Part shown: in pieces, positions 16,972-58,897 of the stretch | Position numbering within the stretch: position 1 is the first letter of the stretch | How the letters are laid out: each line of letters begins with the position of its first letter | Source: an uncultured bacterium | GTDB lineage: Bacteria > Latescibacterota > MWCZ01 | Reading direction: 5' to 3' | Assembly: GCA_964510105.1 (NCBI GenBank) | Contig: CAZEAI010000003.1 | Span: 31,805-95,804, forward strand | Length of the DNA: 64,000 bases | The notes under the pieces: model-generated | Told to the model about the DNA's origin: nothing | What the model saw: the letters and a program-made list of their open reading frames with translations, nothing else | The model's database searches: none | Program-made: the position numbers and the translations under genes

Positions 16972-17964
16972 ATGTCCGGCCCACTCTCCGAATCCACTGA
17001 ACTCGCAGGAGCGTCGTTCCATCCCATCGCACGCACCGATGTGGGGCGGCTGGTGCGCGCCGCTTCAGCCGCACAGACCTGGCTCTGGGCGGCGTACGGC
17101 CCATTCCTTGTCAGCTACGGACGTTCGCCCTCGCGCGCGGTGCTCATTGGTGAGATGGACGACGCGCTGGTCGTGCTGTTGCGGCGACGCATCCGCGGAC
17201 AGGGCCACGTCGATCTCATTGTCCCGCCGCTCGCCGCAGAGCCGCTCCCGGCTCTCACCCGCATCACCGATGCGCTCGCCGCGCACAATGGCGGTGAGCT
17301 GGAAACGCGGCTGCTCTGGGCGGACCTGCCCGCCGCCGCACTGCTGGCGGACAAGCCGGGCTGGCGCGTGACGCCGTACGAGCGCGAGTACCTGTACGAC
17401 CGCGACGCCGTGCTCGCCATGAGCGGGGGCGCGTTCCGGACCCTTCGCAAGCGCGTCAACCGGTGCGAGCGCGAAGCGTTCCCGCTCGTGCGCGACTACA
17501 CCGCCGCCGTCAGCGACGGTCGCACCGACCGCGACGCGTGCGCGGATCTGTTACGCGAGTGGCAGGACGTCCGCGAGCCTGTCGTCGAGCCGGTGTTCGA
17601 CTTCGGCTACACCATGGCCGCGTTGGACGTAGCGACGGAGATCGGCCCTCCGCACCTGACCGGGATCGTCGTCGAGGTCGACGCGCGGGTGCGGGCGTTC
17701 GCGTTCGGAGGCGTGCTGCGGGATGACGTCGCGTGCTTCTTCATCCTGAAGAGCGATCCGACGATTCACGGTCTCGCCGAGTTCGCGCGCGTGGGGCTCA
17801 TGCGACGTCTCGACGGCTGCCGGTACGTGAACGACGCCGGCGATCTCGGCCACGAGGGATTGGCGCGGCACAAGAGCGCGTTCCGCCCGGTGGGGTTCGT
17901 GCCGACGTGGAAGATGGGGTATTCCTGCGGGTGTCGCCCCGACACTCCGCAGGCTAACTCCTGA
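16972..17964 (+). CDS. DUF2156-like protein (MprF C-terminal aminoacyl-transferase-like fold), tentative
   Basis: About 330 aa. Segments (GGAFRTLRKRVNRCERE; FFILKSDPTIHGLAEF...HKSAFRP) resemble the DUF2156/LPG-synthase C-domain. Assigned from memory of family features. Confidence 0.4.
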   Translation: MSGPLSESTELAGASFHPIARTDVGRLVRAASAAQTWLWAAYGPFLVSYGRSPSRAVLIGEMDDALVVLLRRRIRGQGHVDLIVPPLAAEPLPALTRITDALAAHNGGELETRLLWADLPAAALLADKPGWRVTPYEREYLYDRDAVLAMSGGAFRTLRKRVNRCEREAFPLVRDYTAAVSDGRTDRDACADLLREWQDVREPVVEPVFDFGYTMAALDVATEIGPPHLTGIVVEVDARVRAFAFGGVLRDDVACFFILKSDPTIHGLAEFARVGLMRRLDGCRYVNDAGDLGHEGLARHKSAFRPVGFVPTWKMGYSCGCRPDTPQANS

Positions 17965-18373
17965 CGAAGAAGGCGCCAAGGGATGACACTACGACCGCTT
18001 GGGCCACCGCCAGACGAACACCGTATTCACGCATGACATCGAGAGACTGAACTGGCGCGAAGGCTTTCGACACGACGATGGCACCGACGAATAGCAAGTA
18101 TGCTAGCGACAGCACCAATGCTACCCAGAATAGGTACGAATTCACCTGCTTCCTCTGCTTCCTACGGTCTTGGAGATCTACGACCACAGCGCTTACCGTG
18201 AGGCTAAGCGTCGGCAGGATCGTCGCCAGCAACCAGTCCCACGCCTCCTCTGTTCTCTCGCCGTAGTGTCCTAGGTAGGTTCGCGTGAGTACAAGGGTCG
18301 CCAGCAGCAGGGCACCAACCAGCCAGGTTGTGACAAGGCGTTTCTCGCACTCTACTACGGGACGTTGTGCCAT
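17954..18373 (-). CDS. hypothetical small membrane protein (3-4 TM), third gene of the low-GC island operon
   Basis: ATG at 18373 (MAQRPVVE...). Hydrophobic helices TWLVGALLLATLVLT, LLATILPTLSLTVSAVVV, LFWVALVLSLAYLLFVGAIVV. Lower GC than its surroundings. Confidence 0.4.
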   Translation of the reverse strand: MAQRPVVECEKRLVTTWLVGALLLATLVLTRTYLGHYGERTEEAWDWLLATILPTLSLTVSAVVVDLQDRRKQRKQVNSYLFWVALVLSLAYLLFVGAIVVSKAFAPVQSLDVMREYGVRLAVAQAVVVSSLGAFFVRS

Positions 18374-18377
18374 CGCA

Positions 18378-19052
18378 TCACTCCATGAATGACCAGAGCC
18401 CAGCTCTCCGCAGATGGGTTCTTGCGGTGTAGTGGCTCGCAACCAACGCAGGTGTCTCGCCCGAAGGTGGCCTGCGGAAAACATAGACAAGAGCTACGCA
18501 TGCATGCTCCTCCGTGTACCTCTCGCTGGCGATAGTCCGCGGCAGTCTATTCAACCCTCCGTCAGACCATGATCCTGCCCTATCATACGACACCGGTGTT
18601 CGCTCTTGTGAGAAGGCATCCGAGGTCACGGCAAACACGAGGACACGGTAGTACCCGTTTGTCGCCGAGAAGAGTGCCCTGATATAATCCATCAGGGAGA
18701 AATCGTCATCTGACATGGGTGAGAGGTGCCATCGCTCGGGCTCGGGCTTTTTCGACGCATCCCCTCCGATTCTCTCCATTGGAGTCACAAGCGCGAATCC
18801 GCCCGGTACAATGTAGTAGTTGGCGCTGAAATACCCTGCGCCTTTCAGAGCGCCACGTAGCGCATCATCCACGTCCGACAATCGACAGTGGCTGCCGATG
18901 GAGGATCTGACGCTATCCAGCGTGACCGTTGCCACAGCGGACGCTACCGGCGGGGGCCAAGGGAATCTAGGGTATGGCCGGGCTTCGGTAGGCGAAGTAG
19001 CAGGCGGTTGGGGCTGCGCCATGCTAACATCCTCAGACACAGTATCGGGCAC
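18378..19052 (-). CDS. hypothetical protein, second gene of the low-GC island operon
   Basis: Intact 224-aa ORF 21 bp downstream of the DUF4062 gene and 5 bp upstream of the membrane-protein gene. No recognised domain. Confidence 0.4.
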   Translation of the reverse strand: MPDTVSEDVSMAQPQPPATSPTEARPYPRFPWPPPVASAVATVTLDSVRSSIGSHCRLSDVDDALRGALKGAGYFSANYYIVPGGFALVTPMERIGGDASKKPEPERWHLSPMSDDDFSLMDYIRALFSATNGYYRVLVFAVTSDAFSQERTPVSYDRAGSWSDGGLNRLPRTIASERYTEEHACVALVYVFRRPPSGETPALVASHYTARTHLRRAGLWSFME

Positions 19053-19073
19053 TTGCCCAGCAACGGGCGCAGA

Positions 19074-19838
19074 CTAGCGTGGACGGTACTGCCGACATGT
19101 CCTGAATAGCAGGACCCCACTCAGGATCGCCGCAGCAGCGACAGCGAAGAGGATTCCTGACCATCTCACTCGCCCCTCTTCGTACCACTCCCAGAACCAC
19201 ACAAGCAAGGCAGCTAGCACCGCCGCGCTCACCCAAAGCGCCGACATAGGCGCGCGCGCCCAGATGGCAAGAGCGATCGCTGCGGCGACGAGGACGGATA
19301 GAAGCGGGACGAGGACGTGTAGTAAGAGGACCGAGCGACGTGGGTCACAGACGGTCGCCCTCACCGTCCGTAGACGGCTCTGCTCCCAGTTGTGCAATGC
19401 TCGTGTAACTCGGCGCGAGAGATCGTCTGGTGTGCTGAACGCCTCACGAATCGACTCCCTGCTCACGCGGTTCCTGAAGGCACGTTGGCGGGCGCGGTAC
19501 TCGTCTGCTTCGACAAGCCCAGGTGGCATCGGGAAATCTTCGGGAGCAAGGAACATGAGGCGCGGAATACCAGCCGCGATAGCTTCATCATGTTCCCGTT
19601 CGGCATACGACGTTTCACTTCCGGCCGGGATGGCTCCGTACGTGTGGCCCAACACCCCAACGAATACGTCGCAGCCTGAGACGGCGGCATGATCGAACTC
19701 AGCAGCCCCCTGATCACGGGCACCGAAGTCCTCCATGCGTACACAGTGGTATCCGTCTATTCCCTCGATAGCAGCATAGACGGCCTCGCGGTACGCCGTG
19801 AGGTCGCGACCGGTGGAACTGAGGAAGACTGTCGTCAT
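19074..19838 (-). CDS. DUF4062 (TIR/nucleoside-deoxyribosyltransferase-clan) domain protein with three C-terminal transmembrane helices
   Basis: The N-terminus matches DUF4062 closely: TVFLSSTGRDLTAYREAVYAAIEGIDGYHCVRMEDFGARDQG...CDVFVGVLGHTYGAIPAGSETSYAEREHDEAIAAGIPRLMFL. ATG 19838 is preceded by AAGGAG at about 8 nt. The C-terminus carries three TM helices. Confidence 0.6.
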   Translation of the reverse strand: MTTVFLSSTGRDLTAYREAVYAAIEGIDGYHCVRMEDFGARDQGAAEFDHAAVSGCDVFVGVLGHTYGAIPAGSETSYAEREHDEAIAAGIPRLMFLAPEDFPMPPGLVEADEYRARQRAFRNRVSRESIREAFSTPDDLSRRVTRALHNWEQSRLRTVRATVCDPRRSVLLLHVLVPLLSVLVAAAIALAIWARAPMSALWVSAAVLAALLVWFWEWYEEGRVRWSGILFAVAAAAILSGVLLFRTCRQYRPR

Positions 19839-20002
19839 GTCCGGCTCCTTCACACATTTCCTTACCACGATTGTATCGCACGACGGATCGCGGAACAAGC
19901 CGTCACTCCACGTTCCGTCACACTTCTTTCGTATTGCCCCTCCCATCCCCCACCGTACCTTCTCTCCCCGTCCCTTCGCCACGCCTCGCACGGAGCCCGA
20001 CT

Positions 20003-25831: not shown

Positions 25832-26164
25832 GTCGTTGTGCCGTGCCTCCGCTGCGGACCCCATCGAACCTCTCCCGCCTCACGCCCTTATTTCCGGGCG
25901 TTCGTCGTCGCCGACATGCCCGCCCTGTTGCGTACCGGGAGCCGGGAGACCTATGTTCCATCGGTGTGGCGTGAGTCCGTACTTGACCCGGTTTGGACCG
26001 CTCAGATCGTCGTGTTCAAGCTACGACGGTACCCGATTAAGCCCCTGTGACTGATGGCTGAAGATAAGACACCCGCGGCGGTACACCAACCGAATTCACT
26101 GGCACGTGTCCCCCGCCGGCGACTCACACGATCGAGCGCTACGACGCCGGGCATTGCGCGAGTC

Positions 26165-26989
26165 ATGAGGTTTGCGTGTGTCGCGCTCATCGCGGCGGCA
26201 CCCGGCACCATCCAGTCCCGTGAATCCGTGACGCGCGACCAGCGCGGTGTAGAGATGGTGTTCGTTCCCGGTACGTCGTTCACCATGGGCAGCTCAGAGG
26301 CCGGAGCGGACGCACGACCGGCTCACGAGGTCATGGTATCCCCGTTCTATGTCGACCTGACAGAGGTCACCTACGCGCAGTTCCATGCGTTTCTCGTCGA
26401 GAACCCGCAGTGGCGCAGGGAGACTGTCGAACCCTCGCTTGCCGACGTCTACTATCTGCGGGACTGGACGGACCTGAGCTATCCGCCCGAGCTGTCGAAC
26501 CATCCCGTCGTATGGGTCAGTTGGGCCGCGGCGAATGCGTATGCCGAATGGCGCGGCGCCCGCCTGCCGACTGAGGCAGAATGGGAACTTGCGGCGCGCG
26601 GCAGCGATGGACGCGTGTGGCCATGGGGCAGCCACGCTCCGGATTCGGGCTCGACGTACTACTGCAACTACCGCGCCGGAGGACGCACGGGTGACGGTCA
26701 TGTTCGCACGGCGCCGGTGGGCAGTTTCCCGCGCGGAGTCAGCCCGTTCGGCGTGTTCGACATGGCCGGAAACGTGTGGGAGTGGACCGCGGACTGGCAC
26801 GACCCGGAGTACTACGTCGAGAGCACTTCACGCGACCCAACCGGGCCGGCGACGGGAACATACCGGGTTGTGCGCGGCGGCTCGTGGAGCGTGCCCGCGC
26901 CGTGGACACGCTCGACCGTTCGGCTCAGGGCGCCCCCATCCCGATGTTCCGATCAGGTCGGATTTCGCTGCGTCGCCCCCATAGATTAG
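26165..26989 (+). CDS. formylglycine-generating enzyme (SUMF1/FGE) family protein, secreted
   Basis: Signal peptide (MRFACVALIAAAPG). FGE-sulfatase domain motifs (WRGARLPTEAEWELAARG, GNVWEWTADW, RVVRGGSW). Confidence 0.7.
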   Translation: MRFACVALIAAAPGTIQSRESVTRDQRGVEMVFVPGTSFTMGSSEAGADARPAHEVMVSPFYVDLTEVTYAQFHAFLVENPQWRRETVEPSLADVYYLRDWTDLSYPPELSNHPVVWVSWAAANAYAEWRGARLPTEAEWELAARGSDGRVWPWGSHAPDSGSTYYCNYRAGGRTGDGHVRTAPVGSFPRGVSPFGVFDMAGNVWEWTADWHDPEYYVESTSRDPTGPATGTYRVVRGGSWSVPAPWTRSTVRLRAPPSRCSDQVGFRCVAPID

Positions 26990-52956: not shown

Positions 52957-55326
52957 ATGACCGGCACGCATACTCTCGACGTCCTCGAATTCCCTCGAGT
53001 GAAGACTCTCATCGCCGAACTCGCGGCTTCCGCGTTCGGGCGGGAGGCGGTTGAGCAGTCCGAACCCTTGTCCGACCCCGATGACATCCGTGAGCAACTC
53101 GCGTTTGCCGACGAGATGGCGCAGGCTGTCCGCTGGGGTGACCCGGTTCCCATGGGCGGACTGCGCGACATCCGGAACGCGCTCGCAGTCGCCGAGCACC
53201 CCGGCTCCCGAATAGATCCGACTGAACTCCTCGAACTAGGCGACACGATCCGTTCGACGGGTCGCATCAAGTCCCATTTTGGCTCTCGGCGGGAGAAGTA
53301 CCCACGCATCGCCGACATCGCGTCGGCGATCGAGGACGCAAGCGATCTCGCGGCCAAGATCGACCGAATCGTCGACGGAGGCGGCTTCGTGAAGGACTCG
53401 GCCAGCTCGAAGCTGGCGCGCCTCCGACGCGACCTCGATCAGGAGCGGCAATCGTTGCGCTCGGGGCTCGACCGCATGGTGAACCGCCTTTCGGACGACG
53501 TGATCGGGGACCGGGTCGTGTCGTTCCGGGCCGGGCGGCCGGTCATACCGATTCGCGCAACTCACCGGAACCGGCTGCCGGGCATCGTGCATGACCAGTC
53601 CGCCACAGGTCAGACGATCTTCGTCGAGCCGATGGAATCGGTTGAGCAGTCGAATCACATACGACAGCTTGAGCTTGACGAAGAGCGCGAGGTCGAACGC
53701 ATCCTCACCGAGCTGACCGACGCCGTCAGGGAGCACGTCCCGGCCATACGTTCGACGCTGACGGTGGTGCGGGAGCTGGACCGTCTCTACGCCATCGCGT
53801 CGTACGCGGACACATCGAACGGCGTCGCTCCGACGATCAGCGACGACGGCACGTTCAAACTCGTCGAGATGCGACACCCGCTACTCGACGAACGTCTGCG
53901 CGCCGAGGGTGGCGAGGGCGCCGTTCCCGTCACGGTACGTCTGACCGGCGATCAGCGAATCGTGGTCGTCAGCGGCCCCAATGCCGGCGGCAAGACCGTC
54001 GCGCTGAAGACCATCGGGCTGGCAAGCGTGATGGCGCAGGCGGGATTCCTCATTCCCGCGGGCCATCTCACCGTATTGCCCACGTTCACGACCGTATTCG
54101 CGGAGATCGGCGACGAGCAGTCCATCGAGCAGGATCTTTCCACGTTCAGCTCTCGCATGGGGCACCTTGCCCGCATTTCCGAGGAGGCCGACAGCGATAC
54201 CCTCGTGCTCATCGACGAGCTTGGCTCAGCTACGGACCCGGAGCAGGGCGCCGCTCTCTCGCGCGCGCTGCTCAGCCGATGGGGAGATCGGGGCGCGCTC
54301 GCGATCGTAACGACTCACCTCGGCGCGCTCAAGGAATTCGCCCACGAGCATCCCCGCGCGGCGAATGCATCGATGGAGTTCGATCAGGAGTCGCTCAGTC
54401 CGACGTTCCGGCTGCACCTCGGAATCCCCGGATCCAGCTACGCGCTGGAGATATCGCGGCGAGTCGGGTTGGAGCAGGAGATCATCGACGACGCGGAACG
54501 CCAACTCGGCGAGGATGTCGTCCGCACGGAAGAACTCATCGCCGACCTCACGAGGCGGCTCGAACGGGCTGTCGAGCGCGAACGCGAGCTGGAACGGCGG
54601 GCTCGGGAGCTTGAGACCCGCGAATCGGAATACGAGGAACGATTCTCCGCCGTGCGCGCCGACCAGAAACGGCTGGTTCGCGAGGCCAACGAGAAGGCGG
54701 AGAAGATCCTGCTCGATTCCCGTGCGCTCGTGGAGCGGACCGTCGCGGAGCTGCGTCGGACGCAAGCTTCCAGCGACGCCATACGCGAGGGGCGGCATTC
54801 GATTCAGGAGTCGCTTGCCGAGACTCGAAAGGCCATCGAGGCAAGTGCGCCGGAGCCGGTGGTCCGCACCGACAAGCTTGAGGTTGGTGATTGGGTGCGT
54901 GTGGCAAGCCTGGGCCTGACTGGCGAACTCGTGGCGCTCGACAAGCACCGTGGGGCCGTCCAGACGGACACCGCCCGGATGGAGGTCTCCGCCGATCAGA
55001 TCGAGCGCGCGGGGGAACGTCCACGCGGCCGCGCGACGAAGGGCGGCGGCGTCTCGGCCCAGACGTCCGCGGCAGACACGTTCAAACCCGAGATCGACGT
55101 GCGCGGCCTGACGTTCGACGACGCGTGGACACTCGTCGACCGGTATCTCGACGACGCCGTGCTGGCCAGGTATCCCCGCGTGCGCATCATTCACGGCAAG
55201 GGAACCGGCGCACTGAGGAAGAAATTCGGCGAGCAGCTCGCCGGCGACGACCGCGCGGGTTCACATGCGCTCGGGGAACTGCACGAGGGCGGCATCGGCG
55301 TGACCGTCGTGAACGTGCGGAGTTGA
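52957..55326 (+). CDS. mutS2: endonuclease MutS2 (MutS domain V ATPase + C-terminal Smr domain)
   Basis: Walker A (SGPNAGGKTV), ST..DELG.ATDP, long coiled-coil, C-terminal Smr (IDVRGLTFDDAW...IIHGKGTGALR). Confidence 0.85.
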   Translation: MTGTHTLDVLEFPRVKTLIAELAASAFGREAVEQSEPLSDPDDIREQLAFADEMAQAVRWGDPVPMGGLRDIRNALAVAEHPGSRIDPTELLELGDTIRSTGRIKSHFGSRREKYPRIADIASAIEDASDLAAKIDRIVDGGGFVKDSASSKLARLRRDLDQERQSLRSGLDRMVNRLSDDVIGDRVVSFRAGRPVIPIRATHRNRLPGIVHDQSATGQTIFVEPMESVEQSNHIRQLELDEEREVERILTELTDAVREHVPAIRSTLTVVRELDRLYAIASYADTSNGVAPTISDDGTFKLVEMRHPLLDERLRAEGGEGAVPVTVRLTGDQRIVVVSGPNAGGKTVALKTIGLASVMAQAGFLIPAGHLTVLPTFTTVFAEIGDEQSIEQDLSTFSSRMGHLARISEEADSDTLVLIDELGSATDPEQGAALSRALLSRWGDRGALAIVTTHLGALKEFAHEHPRAANASMEFDQESLSPTFRLHLGIPGSSYALEISRRVGLEQEIIDDAERQLGEDVVRTEELIADLTRRLERAVERERELERRARELETRESEYEERFSAVRADQKRLVREANEKAEKILLDSRALVERTVAELRRTQASSDAIREGRHSIQESLAETRKAIEASAPEPVVRTDKLEVGDWVRVASLGLTGELVALDKHRGAVQTDTARMEVSADQIERAGERPRGRATKGGGVSAQTSAADTFKPEIDVRGLTFDDAWTLVDRYLDDAVLARYPRVRIIHGKGTGALRKKFGEQLAGDDRAGSHALGELHEGGIGVTVVNVRS

Positions 55327-55451
55327 CAACCCACCGCCTCGTTGGTTCATTTTGTATGACTGCTGGAACCGCCAGCACCCTCGCTCGTCACACAGTACAG
55401 CCCGGGAACCGCACGTCCTGTTCCTCGGTGGTCAGCAGGGAGGTGGCCGGT

Positions 55452-56237
55452 ATGAAACGCGAGACCCTTCTGCGGTTCACGCTCCTGGTGGCGCTGTCAC
55501 TCGCCGCCGGTGGATGCTACACGGTTCTCACTCACCCGCAGACTACGCCGGAACAGCACGTCACTGACACCGGTGACGTGCTCGCGCCGAACGACTGCTC
55601 GGGATGCCATTCGGGCAGCGAACTCTGGTCATACCACCACGACGCCTACTGGCTCGCCCCGAGCCATCATAGCAGCCTGTCCGGCCCGAGCCATCGCAAC
55701 AGCCTGTCGGGCTACTACGCCTACCGCTACGACCATCTCTTCGTCGGACATCGCTGGTACAATCGCCGTTACTACGATCGCTGGGCATGGTATTACTACC
55801 AGCCGTGGTGGATGTATGACCGCCATCCGCAGCGAGGAGACCATTACGGTCGGCCTGCCGAACAACGACCCACTAGGCATCTCGGCGACCGTCGCGATGG
55901 GTACGACCGTCAGGAGCCGCGCAGCGAGTTCACGCCATATATCGGACCGGGCACCGGCCCCATGACATTCTCGTCTCCGCTTCAGCCCGCGGCGTCGACC
56001 GGCTCGACGGGGCGAGCGCGAACCACTGGCGGCGGCGCTGAAGTGAACGCTGACACGTCGAACGAGCGCAAACTCGGAGATCGGCGGGCCGATCCTCCGG
56101 CTGCTGCGCCCACAACAACTCAGCCGTCGTCGTCCGGTGGCAGCAGGCCAGCGCAGGACGGCGCCAGCAGCGACTCCAACGACGACGGTGACGATGAGCA
56201 ACCTCAGCGGCGACGGCTAGGGGATCGACGCCGCTAG
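55452..56237 (+). CDS. lipoprotein with a single CxxCH motif and an extreme Trp/Tyr/Arg/His-rich low-complexity region
   Basis: Lipobox LAAGGC. NDCSGCHSG (CxxCH). RWYNRRYYDRWAWYYYQPWWMYDRHPQRGDHYGRP. C-terminal Ser/Asp-rich tail. The ORF-track N-extension from 54891 runs inside mutS2 and is rejected. Confidence 0.45.
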   Translation: MKRETLLRFTLLVALSLAAGGCYTVLTHPQTTPEQHVTDTGDVLAPNDCSGCHSGSELWSYHHDAYWLAPSHHSSLSGPSHRNSLSGYYAYRYDHLFVGHRWYNRRYYDRWAWYYYQPWWMYDRHPQRGDHYGRPAEQRPTRHLGDRRDGYDRQEPRSEFTPYIGPGTGPMTFSSPLQPAASTGSTGRARTTGGGAEVNADTSNERKLGDRRADPPAAAPTTTQPSSSGGSRPAQDGASSDSNDDGDDEQPQRRRLGDRRR

Positions 56238-56267
56238 TCGCCGGAAGTGGCACTGGAAGGTGATACC

Positions 56268-57593
56268 ATGACGGGTGCATGGCTTCGGCGAGTCGGCCTC
56301 ACGTTTGCCGGTCTCTTGGTCGCGACACAGACGGCCTCTGCTCAGCAGATTCTGGATATCCGGGATTTCCGAATGGACCTCGGTTTCCAGATCACGGGCG
56401 GATTCGTCGGCGTCGGTGCACGGGAAATGGGGATGGGGGGCGCAGCTCTGGCTGGCGTGTCAGACGGGAGCGCCCTGTACTGGAACCCGGCGGCGCTCAC
56501 GAGAGTTCGCAGAATGGAGCTTCTCGCTGGCCTATCGCGCGCGGGCTCTTCACCCACCACTACCATGGGTCTCGCTCATCCCGTGGATGCAAGCGCATCC
56601 GCAGCGTTCACGCGACTCAACGCCGCCGTCATCACAGCGCCCTATCCTGCATACCGGGGCGGACTGACATTCGCCATCGGATATGATCGTCCTGGCGACT
56701 ACACCTATCGTTCCGAGCAACGGGGACCCTTTTCCCGGAACGGCGCTGACTACGACCAAGTAGATGATGTCCGTCAGGAGGGAGGGCTTTCCCAGCTTTC
56801 CATCGGGTTCGGAGTCGAGATATCTCAGCAGGTGGCAGTCGGCTTGTCAAGCACTTGGTACCGTGGCGATCTGAGCGTTCGTCGCGAACTGACTCTGGCA
56901 CCAACCGACGGAGGCGGGCAGCTCTACGGGGTGTTCAGGCAGAACTCCGATATCAGCGGCTACATGGTCACTGCCGGAACTACGGCTCAGCTCCCCCATG
57001 GACTTGTTCTTGGTCTCGCAGCAACACCACCCGTGACGTACACCGTCGACGGCACCTTCGGTGACGCCTACAACGATTTTCCGGAAGAAGAAGAGGGCCA
57101 GTATCGATACAAGGTGGAGGGCCCGTGGGTCCTCGGCACGGGGTTGGCGTGGACAACGTACGCTCTCACCATCGCCACCGACATCTGGTTCGTCGACTGG
57201 AGCCAGGCAACGTTCAAGGAAAGCCCGTTCGCGGCGGGGTCCGAGGCGTCACCGGGCACGCCGAACGCAGACACATATTTCAGAGACTACTACGACAGCC
57301 CCATCCGATGGCACGTGGGCCTGGAGGCGCTCCTGCCGTGGATAGCCACCGTGGCCCGCGTGGGCTACTACTCGAATCCCGATCCGTTCGCCGGCCCGGT
57401 GCTTTCCACCGGCGAAGCCGTCACGTACACCGAGCGCGCGGGCTACTTCACGGCCGGGCTGGGCTGGCTCATCGACGACACGGTGACCGTGGATCTCGCT
57501 TACACCACCGGCGGGGACGAGTATCGCGCGGGCACGCTGACCGAGACCCGCAACAGCGATTCCGCGTTCCTCACCGTCGGATTCAGGCTCTGA
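56268..57593 (+). CDS. outer-membrane beta-barrel protein of the FadL/PorV-like superfamily (second copy in window)
   Basis: Signal peptide (LLVATQTASAQQ). Family signature GMGGAALAGVSDGSALYWNPAALT. Amphipathic beta-strand-like composition, C-terminal TVGFRL. Confidence 0.5.
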   Translation: MTGAWLRRVGLTFAGLLVATQTASAQQILDIRDFRMDLGFQITGGFVGVGAREMGMGGAALAGVSDGSALYWNPAALTRVRRMELLAGLSRAGSSPTTTMGLAHPVDASASAAFTRLNAAVITAPYPAYRGGLTFAIGYDRPGDYTYRSEQRGPFSRNGADYDQVDDVRQEGGLSQLSIGFGVEISQQVAVGLSSTWYRGDLSVRRELTLAPTDGGGQLYGVFRQNSDISGYMVTAGTTAQLPHGLVLGLAATPPVTYTVDGTFGDAYNDFPEEEEGQYRYKVEGPWVLGTGLAWTTYALTIATDIWFVDWSQATFKESPFAAGSEASPGTPNADTYFRDYYDSPIRWHVGLEALLPWIATVARVGYYSNPDPFAGPVLSTGEAVTYTERAGYFTAGLGWLIDDTVTVDLAYTTGGDEYRAGTLTETRNSDSAFLTVGFRL

Positions 57594-57745
57594 GCGCCAA
57601 CCCATGACTCGTGGCGGGTAGGGTTACCCGGCCCGCCGCGCTACCTTCCTACGTCGCTCGCGCCGATGACAATCGCGGCGCTCTCCAGATCGCTTACCGA
57701 CGACGTGCGACTCGCGTGCGAGTTCCTCGACGTACCTGAGATTCA

Positions 57746-58897
57746 ATGCGATACGCAATTCTCTACTTCGCGCATTTCTTCGCATACGGCTGTTACGGCC
57801 CGTACCTCTCGCTCTACCTCGGGCGCACGCTGGGTTACGGCCAGACCGAGATCGGCTGGATACTCGCAATCTTCGGTCTGACGGGACTCGCCGGGCCGTT
57901 CCTGTGGGGTCCTCTCGCCGAGCGCACCTCCCGCCGCCGGGCGATGTTCGTCGTCGGCTTCGCGCTGAGCGCGGTGATCTACCCGGTGTACATCGTGACG
58001 GGCTCCGTTACATCAGCGCTTATCCCGACGGTGCTCCTCGGCGCGGTGTTCATGCCGATCATCCCGCTCATCGACGACATCACGATGCGGCACGTCCGAG
58101 AAGCAGGCGCGGACTACGGTCACATCCGGCTCTGGGGATCGCTCTCGTTTATCGCGGCGAGTCTGACCGTCGGCTGGGCGATGGAAGCGCACGAGTGGGT
58201 TCAGTTCCCCGTGTTCGCGCTCGCTGAAATCATCGGGCTGGTCGTCATACTGACGTTCCCGGCGTCGGCGCTGAACTACCGCGCCGCGGAAACGAAGGAC
58301 CTCCACTTCTGGCGCGCGATGAGCGGCTCGTTCGTGATCTTCCTGATCGCTGCTTTCATCGGCCGTCTGGCGAACGTGGGGCACTACGTATTCTTCAGCC
58401 TGTATCTTGAGAGCATCGGCGTCGCAGACTCGATCAAAGGCGTGGCCTGGTCGGTCGGCGTGGTCGCCGAGATCGCCATGATGATCGTCGCGGGGCGTTT
58501 CATCGGACGATTCGGCGCTCGTGTGTTGTTCACCATCGGCCTCGTCGGCTCGGCGATCCGGTTCCTCGTCTACGTCTACCAACCGACCGTGGAAGGCGCG
58601 CTTGTCGGGCAGCTATTCCACGCGTTCTCTTTCGGCGCGCTCCACATCGGGTCGGTGACGCTGGTCTCGCAGCTAGCTCCGGAGGGACGCACCGGCACCG
58701 GTCAGATGGCGCACGCCGCGCTCTGCATTGGCGTCGGAACGACGGTCGGTTCGACGCTTGCGGGATATATGGCGGACGCGTGGGGATATCACGGCATGTA
58801 TCTCTGCTCTTCCGGCCTGGCGATACTTGCGGCGCTTGTCTTCGTGCCGCTGCTCCTGCAGCGCACCGCGGCACCGGTAACGGAGAGCGGAACATAG
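57746..58897 (+). CDS. MFS transporter
   Basis: 12 predicted TM helices. MFS loop motif between TM2 and TM3 (GPLAERTSRRR). Confidence 0.7.
   Translation: MRYAILYFAHFFAYGCYGPYLSLYLGRTLGYGQTEIGWILAIFGLTGLAGPFLWGPLAERTSRRRAMFVVGFALSAVIYPVYIVTGSVTSALIPTVLLGAVFMPIIPLIDDITMRHVREAGADYGHIRLWGSLSFIAASLTVGWAMEAHEWVQFPVFALAEIIGLVVILTFPASALNYRAAETKDLHFWRAMSGSFVIFLIAAFIGRLANVGHYVFFSLYLESIGVADSIKGVAWSVGVVAEIAMMIVAGRFIGRFGARVLFTIGLVGSAIRFLVYVYQPTVEGALVGQLFHAFSFGALHIGSVTLVSQLAPEGRTGTGQMAHAALCIGVGTTVGSTLAGYMADAWGYHGMYLCSSGLAILAALVFVPLLLQRTAAPVTESGT

Follow-up and report, generated by a model that had tools for sequence, protein, structure and literature searches.

The window analysed here is a stretch of 64,000 nucleotides from an uncultured bacterium (GTDB lineage Bacteria; Latescibacterota; MWCZ01), taken from contig CAZEAI010000003.1 of GenBank assembly GCA_964510105.1, and all coordinates are counted from its first letter. 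The analysis concerns a minus-strand gene, referred to as gene A, and the two genes that follow it, B and C. A preliminary description made from the letters alone had taken gene A for a short standalone protein, with a DUF4062 domain over its N-terminal 95 residues and three C-terminal transmembrane (TM) helices, that would act either as an NADase-like (NAD+-hydrolysing) effector or as a membrane-disrupting executioner. The gene encodes an N-terminal DUF4062 head resembling TIR domains (TIR, Toll/interleukin-1 receptor), from which a stalk helix (residues 137-163) leads straight into the three TM helices. The features of gene A are as follows, with the evidence for each in brackets.

19074 to 19838, minus strand: gene A, a DUF4062-stalk-3TM protein of 254 amino acids, from ATG at 19838 to TAG at 19074-19076 (open reading frame and translation).
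19845 to 19851, minus strand: GAAGGAG, a Shine-Dalgarno-like sequence 6 nucleotides before the ATG of gene A (read from the sequence).
19581 to 19829, minus strand: DUF4062 (PF13271) TIR-like domain, residues 4-86 (Pfam, match to KpSwz in the PDB, AlphaFold2 and Foldseek).
19599 to 19601, minus strand: codon of Glu80, within the motif S77-Y-A-E80-R-E82 (aligned with catalytic Glu97 of KpSwz).
19350 to 19580, minus strand: extension of the module, residues 87-163, comprising the last strand and helix, a short strand at 131-133 and the stalk helix at 137-163 (conservation, at 45-66% identity among relatives as far as about residue 155; KpSwz alignment; AlphaFold2).
19260 to 19334, minus strand: TM helix 1, residues 169-193 (Kyte-Doolittle, Hessa and AlphaFold2).
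19188 to 19247, minus strand: TM helix 2, residues 198-217 (the same three methods).
19104 to 19160, minus strand: TM helix 3, residues 227-245, followed by RTCRQYRPR (the same three methods).
19074 to 19076, minus strand: TAG stop of gene A, the sole stop between A and the in-frame open reading frame of gene B (translation of 17954-19838 in a single frame).

By every sequence and predicted-fold criterion applied, the product of gene A is a member of the DUF4062 family. The Pfam profile check proposed in the preliminary description returned a full-length match to PF13271 (E=8.3e-17; 61.6 bits, where the cut-off is 24.7; positions 2-82 of the 82 in the profile). A profile built from gene A and 44 homologues retrieved one solved family from the PDB, 'KpSwz TIR/DUF4062' (10wc, 11cq, 11cv), at E=1.9e-20 over residues 3-151, and the single sequence of gene A also matched the KpSwz structure (E=6.7e-6, 28 bits, residues 4-149). 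The AlphaFold2 model, computed from a 45-sequence alignment, has a mean predicted local distance difference test score of 86, with values above 90 in the head, where alternating strands and helices are predicted to form a five-stranded parallel beta/alpha fold resembling that of TIR domains. Its top Foldseek matches in the PDB, with modest E values of 4e-5 to 1e-3, were the TIR domains of RPS4, RPP1, SARM1 and SfSTING, followed by a nucleoside 2-deoxyribosyltransferase. Altogether, the assignment to the DUF4062/TIR clan was borne out. The proposed length of 95 residues was too short, as the conserved module of domain, short strand and stalk helix continues to about residue 155. This module is 45-69% identical among relatives, its stalk ends in ...NWEQ, and the alignment of gene A with the KpSwz chain reaches chain residue 152. 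Scans with PADLOC (2023) and NCBIfam gave no match for gene A. An identical copy of the protein is present in NCBI (P0001) and one with a single substitution in ENA (P0048), the same allele being found in three independent datasets.

In preprints of 2026, DUF4062 has been described as a TIR-like NAD+ hydrolase, with KpSwz, Evangelion and TEP1 as examples (10.64898/2026.05.01.722283; 10.64898/2026.06.25.731849); the activity that defines such NADases is the hydrolysis of NAD+, which yields ADP-ribose and nicotinamide. KpSwz ('Swarozyc') is an abortive-infection protein that is triggered by binding of the phage portal to its C-terminal AUX domain, that requires Glu97 for activity, and whose TIR-like heads stand on helical stalks proposed to relay activation (10.64898/2026.05.01.722283). 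The catalytic Glu is recognised by an acidic-S(Y/F)T-E motif, corresponding to E97 in KpSwz, E87 in Eva01 and E1008 in TEP1. In the HMMER alignments SYAE of gene A pairs with SFTE of KpSwz and, since chain residue E82 of the 16-C construct is E97, Glu80 is the predicted catalytic equivalent. The search for such a residue, also proposed in the preliminary description, thus had a positive outcome and, together with the KpSwz match and the Foldseek neighbours, it lends support through homologues to the NADase-like idea. The strand-1 aromatic motif ('VF.SS', F11 in Eva01) is kept as well, gene A having V4-F5-L6-S7-S8 where KpSwz has VFVSS, and L6, S7 and S8 are invariant across the clade of gene A. 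Overall, 37 of the 40 strongly conserved clade columns are retained, and the three deviations (C49D, T79A, Y83H) compare with a median of two in relatives.

Two of these deviations weigh against an active enzyme. The motif reads SYAE and not SYTE or SFTE, at a position that holds Thr or Ser in 160 of 165 relatives, and both T79A and Y83H depart from the clade consensus directly beside Glu80, so NADase activity of gene A is not assured. Additionally, human TEP1 is an active NADase whose activity increases with concentration, and three of the four human DUF4062 proteins tested (NWD1, NWD2 and NPHP3) were inactive (10.64898/2026.05.01.722283); membership in the family is therefore no guarantee of activity.

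The three C-terminal TM helices of the preliminary description are supported by the agreement of Kyte-Doolittle hydropathy, Hessa-scale sums and the AlphaFold2 model, in which the predicted tail helices span residues 166-195, 198-220 and 227-250. Sums over 19 residues, calculated with the scale values of Hessa et al. 2005, were -1.3, -0.4 and -1.0 kcal/mol for the three segments, as compared with a minimum of +7.9 kcal/mol in the soluble part. An Arg-rich segment with five Lys or Arg in residues 151-168 lies ahead of TM helix 1. The possibility that the tail is an artefact of a frameshift or of high-GC composition was rejected, as the other two frames contain stops, GC content by codon position is as in the rest of the gene, and none of the 516 stop-free blocks of 105 amino acids in all six frames of the window holds even two such hydrophobic segments. 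An exhaustive HMMER search with the tail (residues 150-254) against 1.84 billion representative proteins returned only the tail itself and one spurious repeat protein, and by this measure the tail is an orphan. The word 'transmembrane' is absent from all three DUF4062 papers of 2026, and those on Swarozyc and Evangelion make no mention of membranes.

A tail of this kind could itself be the killing device, with the DUF4062 head as a ligand-binding or oligomerising switch, comparable to the TM effectors of Thoeris, CBASS and Pycsar. Many signalling defence systems do pair a nucleotide-binding domain with two to four TM helices (10.64898/2025.12.03.692087), the DUF4062 fold is related to the nucleotide-binding TIR and nucleoside 2-deoxyribosyltransferase folds, and a loss of catalysis could be the meaning of T79A and Y83H close to the Glu. 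We nevertheless consider this explanation highly improbable. No signal-producing partner (TIR/ThsB, CD-NTase or cyclase) was found among genes A to C or in their flanks, and the membrane-disrupting executioner of the preliminary description was left without support on the same ground. In addition, the catalytic Glu and the invariant core are kept, the tail is not conserved, and the characterised DUF4062 proteins (KpSwz, TEP1 and Eva01) act by NAD+ hydrolysis or depletion.

Two further genes follow gene A on the same strand.

18378 to 19052, minus strand: gene B, encoding an 'FPWPPPxASA' domain protein (open reading frame open from GTG at 19052; 86 homologues).
17954 to 18373, minus strand: gene C, encoding 139 amino acids with four hydrophobic segments and starting 5 nucleotides past the stop of gene B.

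The 86 homologues of gene B form an uncharacterised family, with no Pfam domain over the region, whose common features are the invariant motif FPWPPPxASA and a domain some 190 amino acids long. The N-termini of its members almost always carry a lipoprotein signal peptide, a signal anchor or two to three TM helices, followed by a Pro/Thr/Ala-rich linker, and a hydrophobic segment precedes the motif in 66 of 83 homologues. The two apparently anchor-less members that were re-examined (P0057 and P0091) both showed classical lipobox signals once their open reading frames were extended upstream, and multi-TM anchors were seen in P0059 and P0127 (three helices each) and in P0077 (two). These signal peptides and anchors ahead of the motif place the domain, in all likelihood, outside the cytoplasm. 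Gene B of the window keeps all family-invariant columns and a Pro/Thr-rich linker, and it is without a signal peptide or anchor. Its AlphaFold2 model is confident, and no significant solved structural relative was found for it.

A homologue of gene C follows gene B in four independent loci (L002, L167, L085 and L083), all of them without DUF4062 or any other TIR-like gene. These C-type partners are proteins of about 140-160 amino acids with four TM helices, and they are usually translationally coupled to B. No Pfam or PADLOC family was significant for B or C, the best weak matches having E values of 0.007 and 0.056. Judged by this sequence evidence, B and C are an autonomous, uncharacterised two-gene envelope module that is widely distributed.

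Translation in one frame revealed that A and B share the same reading frame and are parted by the single TAG and seven codons, so that the sequence runs from TM helix 3 through FRTCRQYRPR and the stop into SAPVAGQVPDTVSEDVSMAQPQPPATSPTEARPYPRFPWPPP. A sequencing error at the TAG was rejected, as two independent metagenome contigs have this stop too, and stop-codon reassignment was also rejected, as TAG ends 15 of the 42 genes. No tRNA or RNA family was detected in the window. The TAG parts A from B in all three datasets, and a continuous membrane-spanning A-B polypeptide is not encoded.

The three helices of gene A stand where homologues of gene B carry their signal peptide or anchor, one linker-length upstream of FPWPPP. 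The shared frame and this position would together account for the lack of a signal peptide in gene B itself. In a BLAST comparison with the three-helix homologue P0059, the read-through sequence was colinear through TM helix 3. The odd number of helices, combined with a cytosolic N-terminus, would also put the chain that follows on the outside, where B belongs, and the three genes have in common a low GC content at third codon positions (GC3). Thus, gene A probably has no autonomous design, its TM block being in frame with B and replacing the export anchor that B is missing. In the earlier term 'short standalone protein', the word standalone is doubtful, given the downstream gene in the same frame. 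With a shared frame broken by only one TAG, and helices at the anchor position of B, our preferred reading of the locus is that an NADase head became fused, in this lineage, to the anchor of a B-C envelope module and that a stop codon now divides the product, and we hold this explanation with somewhat more confidence than doubt.

Several observations weigh against a fusion. A shared frame is expected by chance in one case out of three, and gene B has a plausible start of its own, the likely one being ATG at 19022, which has GAGGA as a Shine-Dalgarno-like sequence. When the TM block was compared with the multi-TM anchors of P0059, P0052 and P0077, similarity was not significant (z of 0.06-0.8 against shuffles), and the colinear extension with P0059 therefore counts as positional evidence only. 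Four Arg residues after TM helix 3 disfavour an outside location for that end of the protein. Additionally, P0115 and P0119 may be genuinely anchor-less homologues of gene B, neither B nor C occurs in any of about 160 loci of gene A relatives, and among the 86 gene B matches there was no PF13271 hit and no intact DUF4062-TM-B protein. No diverged orthologue for a selection test on the tail was found, the matching metagenome contigs being at least 99.9% identical. The flanks provide no defence-island context and gave no PADLOC matches. A large caveat applies to the locus as a whole, as a single lineage, an orphan tail and a stop in mid-locus may amount to an evolutionary accident and not a working system. 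Because of the counter-points on anchor similarity, the Arg residues, chance framing, the start of B and the missing intact fusion, the history of A and B as a fusion that is now split is graded as likely, not proven.

The architectures of the relatives of the head are informative about where it may have come from. The module is present in 47 database proteins and in about 160 genomic and metagenomic loci, and its closest relatives have the architectures DUF4062-NACHT-FGE-sulfatase, DUF4062-STAND-TPR and DUF4062-TIR_2. The C-termini of the relatives include NACHT with FGE-sulfatase, STAND with TPR, nSTAND5 with repeats, TIR_2, and a beta-rich domain of about 130 amino acids, and the complete relatives (n=134) are mostly 900-1,200 amino acids long. 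The link to STAND NTPases drawn in the preliminary description therefore stands, the nearest relatives of the head carrying NACHT/STAND, and, by sequence, the head comes from a clade whose members mostly serve as N-terminal effectors in NACHT/STAND (NLR- or TEP1-like) proteins. Gene A itself has no Pfam match to NACHT or another STAND NTPase, as compared with the NACHT, nSTAND3 or nSTAND5 of its relatives, and tblastn with these relatives across the window revealed no remnants of NACHT or other domains near gene A. A multi-helix tail like that of gene A was not seen in the loci of about 160 relatives. A single TM segment directly follows the module in two of them, L165 (67-1047) and the truncated L035 (1473-2168), which suggests that membrane-spanning versions of this head arose more than once. 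Past its TM segment, L165 continues into a helical region of about 135 amino acids for which no homologue was found, an orphan like the tail of gene A.

The only other tblastn match in the window was an unrelated, stand-alone FGE-sulfatase gene at 26054-26989 on the plus strand (Pfam E=3e-60), 7 kb from gene A. Many DUF4062-NACHT relatives have C-terminal sensor-like domains with 30-40% identity to its product, and this likeness appears to be domain sharing only. Two other architectures were also observed among the relatives. L101:6001-7254 and P0007 join a DUF4062 head to a canonical TIR_2 domain, with two TIR-type domains in a chain of about 300-420 amino acids. Recurrent proteins of about 290 amino acids (P0021, P0024, P0030, P0034, P0035, L036, L052 and others) combine the head with the unannotated beta-rich C-terminal domain of about 130 amino acids, which carries the motif LLFPFVTNQxGFDTGIAISN...DPFGT; this looks like a distinct and fairly common single-gene architecture.

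These comparisons bear on whether gene A could instead be complete in itself, as a membrane-anchored DUF4062 NADase whose three helices serve as its own sensor or oligomerisation ('AUX') module, possibly reacting to a perturbed membrane during infection, while B-C would be there by chance. DUF4062 systems are single-gene and their AUX regions are highly diversified (10.64898/2026.06.25.731849). Gene A has a strong Shine-Dalgarno sequence of its own and a normal stop, and the single-TM tails of L165 and L035 are unrelated to its own. The occurrence of B-C elsewhere without DUF4062, and the one-in-three expectation for the frame, are also in keeping with such an arrangement. It would, however, leave unexplained why this gene B alone is without the near-universal signal peptide or anchor of its family, and why the helices lie exactly one linker-length upstream of FPWPPP. 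Given, in addition, a tail without homologues and a locus without defence context, we regard autonomy as unlikely.

Genes A, B and C lie head to tail on the minus strand within an islet of 1.9 kb that differs from its surroundings in composition.

17954 to 19887, no strand assigned: islet of atypical composition holding genes A, B and C (GC3; contig ends).

GC3 is 0.63-0.70 in the islet and 0.83-0.86 in the flanking genes, which are of housekeeping type (GH2 glycosidases, PriA, RodZ, Maf, BpsA, AdoMet decarboxylase, an RsmD-like methyltransferase and an LPG-synthase-C-like protein). Two metagenome contigs from other studies, JGI Ga0118720_1002468 and a scaffold in ENA, match the window at 99.9% identity or more and stop exactly at 19887, which is 49 nucleotides upstream of gene A. 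These shared ends hint that strains differ structurally at the islet edge. A search for direct or inverted repeats bounding the islet found nothing convincing. IMG/VR contained no relatives of gene A or gene B, and a phage origin of the locus was set aside as unsupported.

The composition of the islet and the state of its genes also have to be considered with regard to decay. The locus could be a remnant, in which the 5' part of an NLR-type DUF4062 gene was joined to B and then struck by a nonsense mutation, leaving a sensor-less NADase stub and a non-exportable B, neither of them functional. The in-frame TAG between anchor and domain, the orphan tail and the deviations beside the catalytic Glu are all compatible with this account, as are the atypical composition and the two assemblies that break at the islet edge. 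So is the comparison with most complete relatives, whose 900-1,200 amino acids include parts that this locus does not have, namely NACHT/STAND with repeats or FGE-sulfatase. On the other hand, the head, B and C all keep family-invariant residues and intact open reading frames, the three deviations counted in gene A are a typical number, the tail has a coding-like GC pattern, and the same allele recurs in three independent datasets. Considering both sides, decay seems to us possible and on the doubtful side.

Elsewhere in the window, a region of about 2.4 kb at 55326-57746 contains no open reading frame that passes the high-GC3 coding filter applied to the rest of the sequence. It could be another atypical or non-coding region.

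Returning to the fusion, now split, that we favour, gene A as encoded would give an NADase that the membrane holds at its inner face. No sensor domain is recognisable in it, and the input, by analogy with the KpSwz stalk and with TEP1, may be a clustering or re-packing of the helices that is relayed through the stalk and opens the active site. If the enzyme is active, the output would be hydrolysis of NAD+ with arrest of the cell and abortive infection, as in characterised relatives. The single-TM versions in L165 and L035 provide a precedent for a membrane-bound head, and the KpSwz stalk, proposed to transmit activation, provides one for the relay.

An extension of this mechanism, which we rate as rather improbable, is that A, B and C make up a transmembrane receptor, or did so until recently, in which an envelope sensor signals to a cytosolic TIR-like NADase, following the logic of Toll-like receptors. 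The exported FPWPPP domain of B, together with the four TM helices of C, would sense an envelope event, for instance phage adsorption, DNA injection or wall damage. The signal would pass via the three helices and the stalk and lead to NAD+ depletion. Ribosomes might read through the TAG at a low level to give the full chain, or reassembly of the two split parts might take place.

Among known systems, the solved relative is Swarozyc (Osinski et al. 2026, bioRxiv 10.64898/2026.05.01.722283; PDB 10wc, 11cq, 11cv). Gene A resembles KpSwz in its N-terminal DUF4062 head and the start of the stalk, in the catalytic Glu, and in being a single polypeptide with a C-terminal specificity part. The two differ in that the portal is bound in KpSwz by an AUX domain of soluble helix-turn-helix/winged type, whereas gene A has three TM helices (166-250), the alignment stopping at about residue 150. 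Identity is also low, and KpSwz is found in defence islands while gene A is not. Without the AUX domain and the island context, gene A is not a Swarozyc member. The closest relatives of the head are the NLR/TEP1-like DUF4062-NACHT (STAND) proteins, which share the stalk ending ...NWEQ and the 45-69% identity given above over about 150 residues. Those proteins reach about 900-1,500 amino acids, with NACHT/nSTAND followed by TPR, FGE-sulfatase or other repeats, whereas gene A ends at 254 and, having no NTPase, is not an NLR-type DUF4062-STAND protein.

In the Evangelion systems (Eva01 and others), a single gene encodes a DUF4062 core together with an AUX region that is diversified (Ibarra-Chavez et al. 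2026, 10.64898/2026.06.25.731849). Gene A is similar to them in its compact core, its short variable C-terminal region, the aromatic motif (F5) and the acidic-SYT Glu motif (S77-Y-A-E80). Of the DUF4062-specific Q/W/E motif of Evangelion, compared via KpSwz and not via Eva sequences, the Glu alone is kept (G-A-A-E-F in gene A and E-Q-W-E-F in KpSwz), at a position that is variable throughout the clade of gene A. Evangelion systems differ in their association with plasmids and in their soluble AUX regions. The TM effectors, such as type II Thoeris ThsA, Cap15 and PycTM, have in common with gene A a nucleotide-related domain and a few helices. Homology to known TM effectors is absent, and their signalling partner gene has no counterpart here. 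Read as one chain, A and B would resemble a Toll-like receptor, with a membrane span between a TIR-like domain in the cytosol and another domain outside. The differences are that there are three helices and not one, that the TIR-like domain is N-terminal, that the chain is cut by a stop, and that homology to Toll-like receptor ectodomains is absent.

Recognition of DUF4062 as a TIR-like NADase, in bacterial immunity and in the human vault protein TEP1, is very recent, and the systems described to date are soluble ones whose triggers, phage proteins or replication, are intracellular. An NLR-clade head joined to membrane helices would extend the DUF4062 effector to the membrane, and the position of these helices, in place of the anchor of an exported domain, hints that such heads may be wired to sensors outside the cytoplasm. 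The head has recombined promiscuously, with NACHT, TPR, FGE-sulfatase, TIR_2, a beta-rich domain, single-TM tails and, here, a three-helix tail. In comparison with these systems, what is new at this locus is a DUF4062 head of the NLR clade on a three-helix anchor, followed in the same frame, past a stop codon, by a domain of an exported type.

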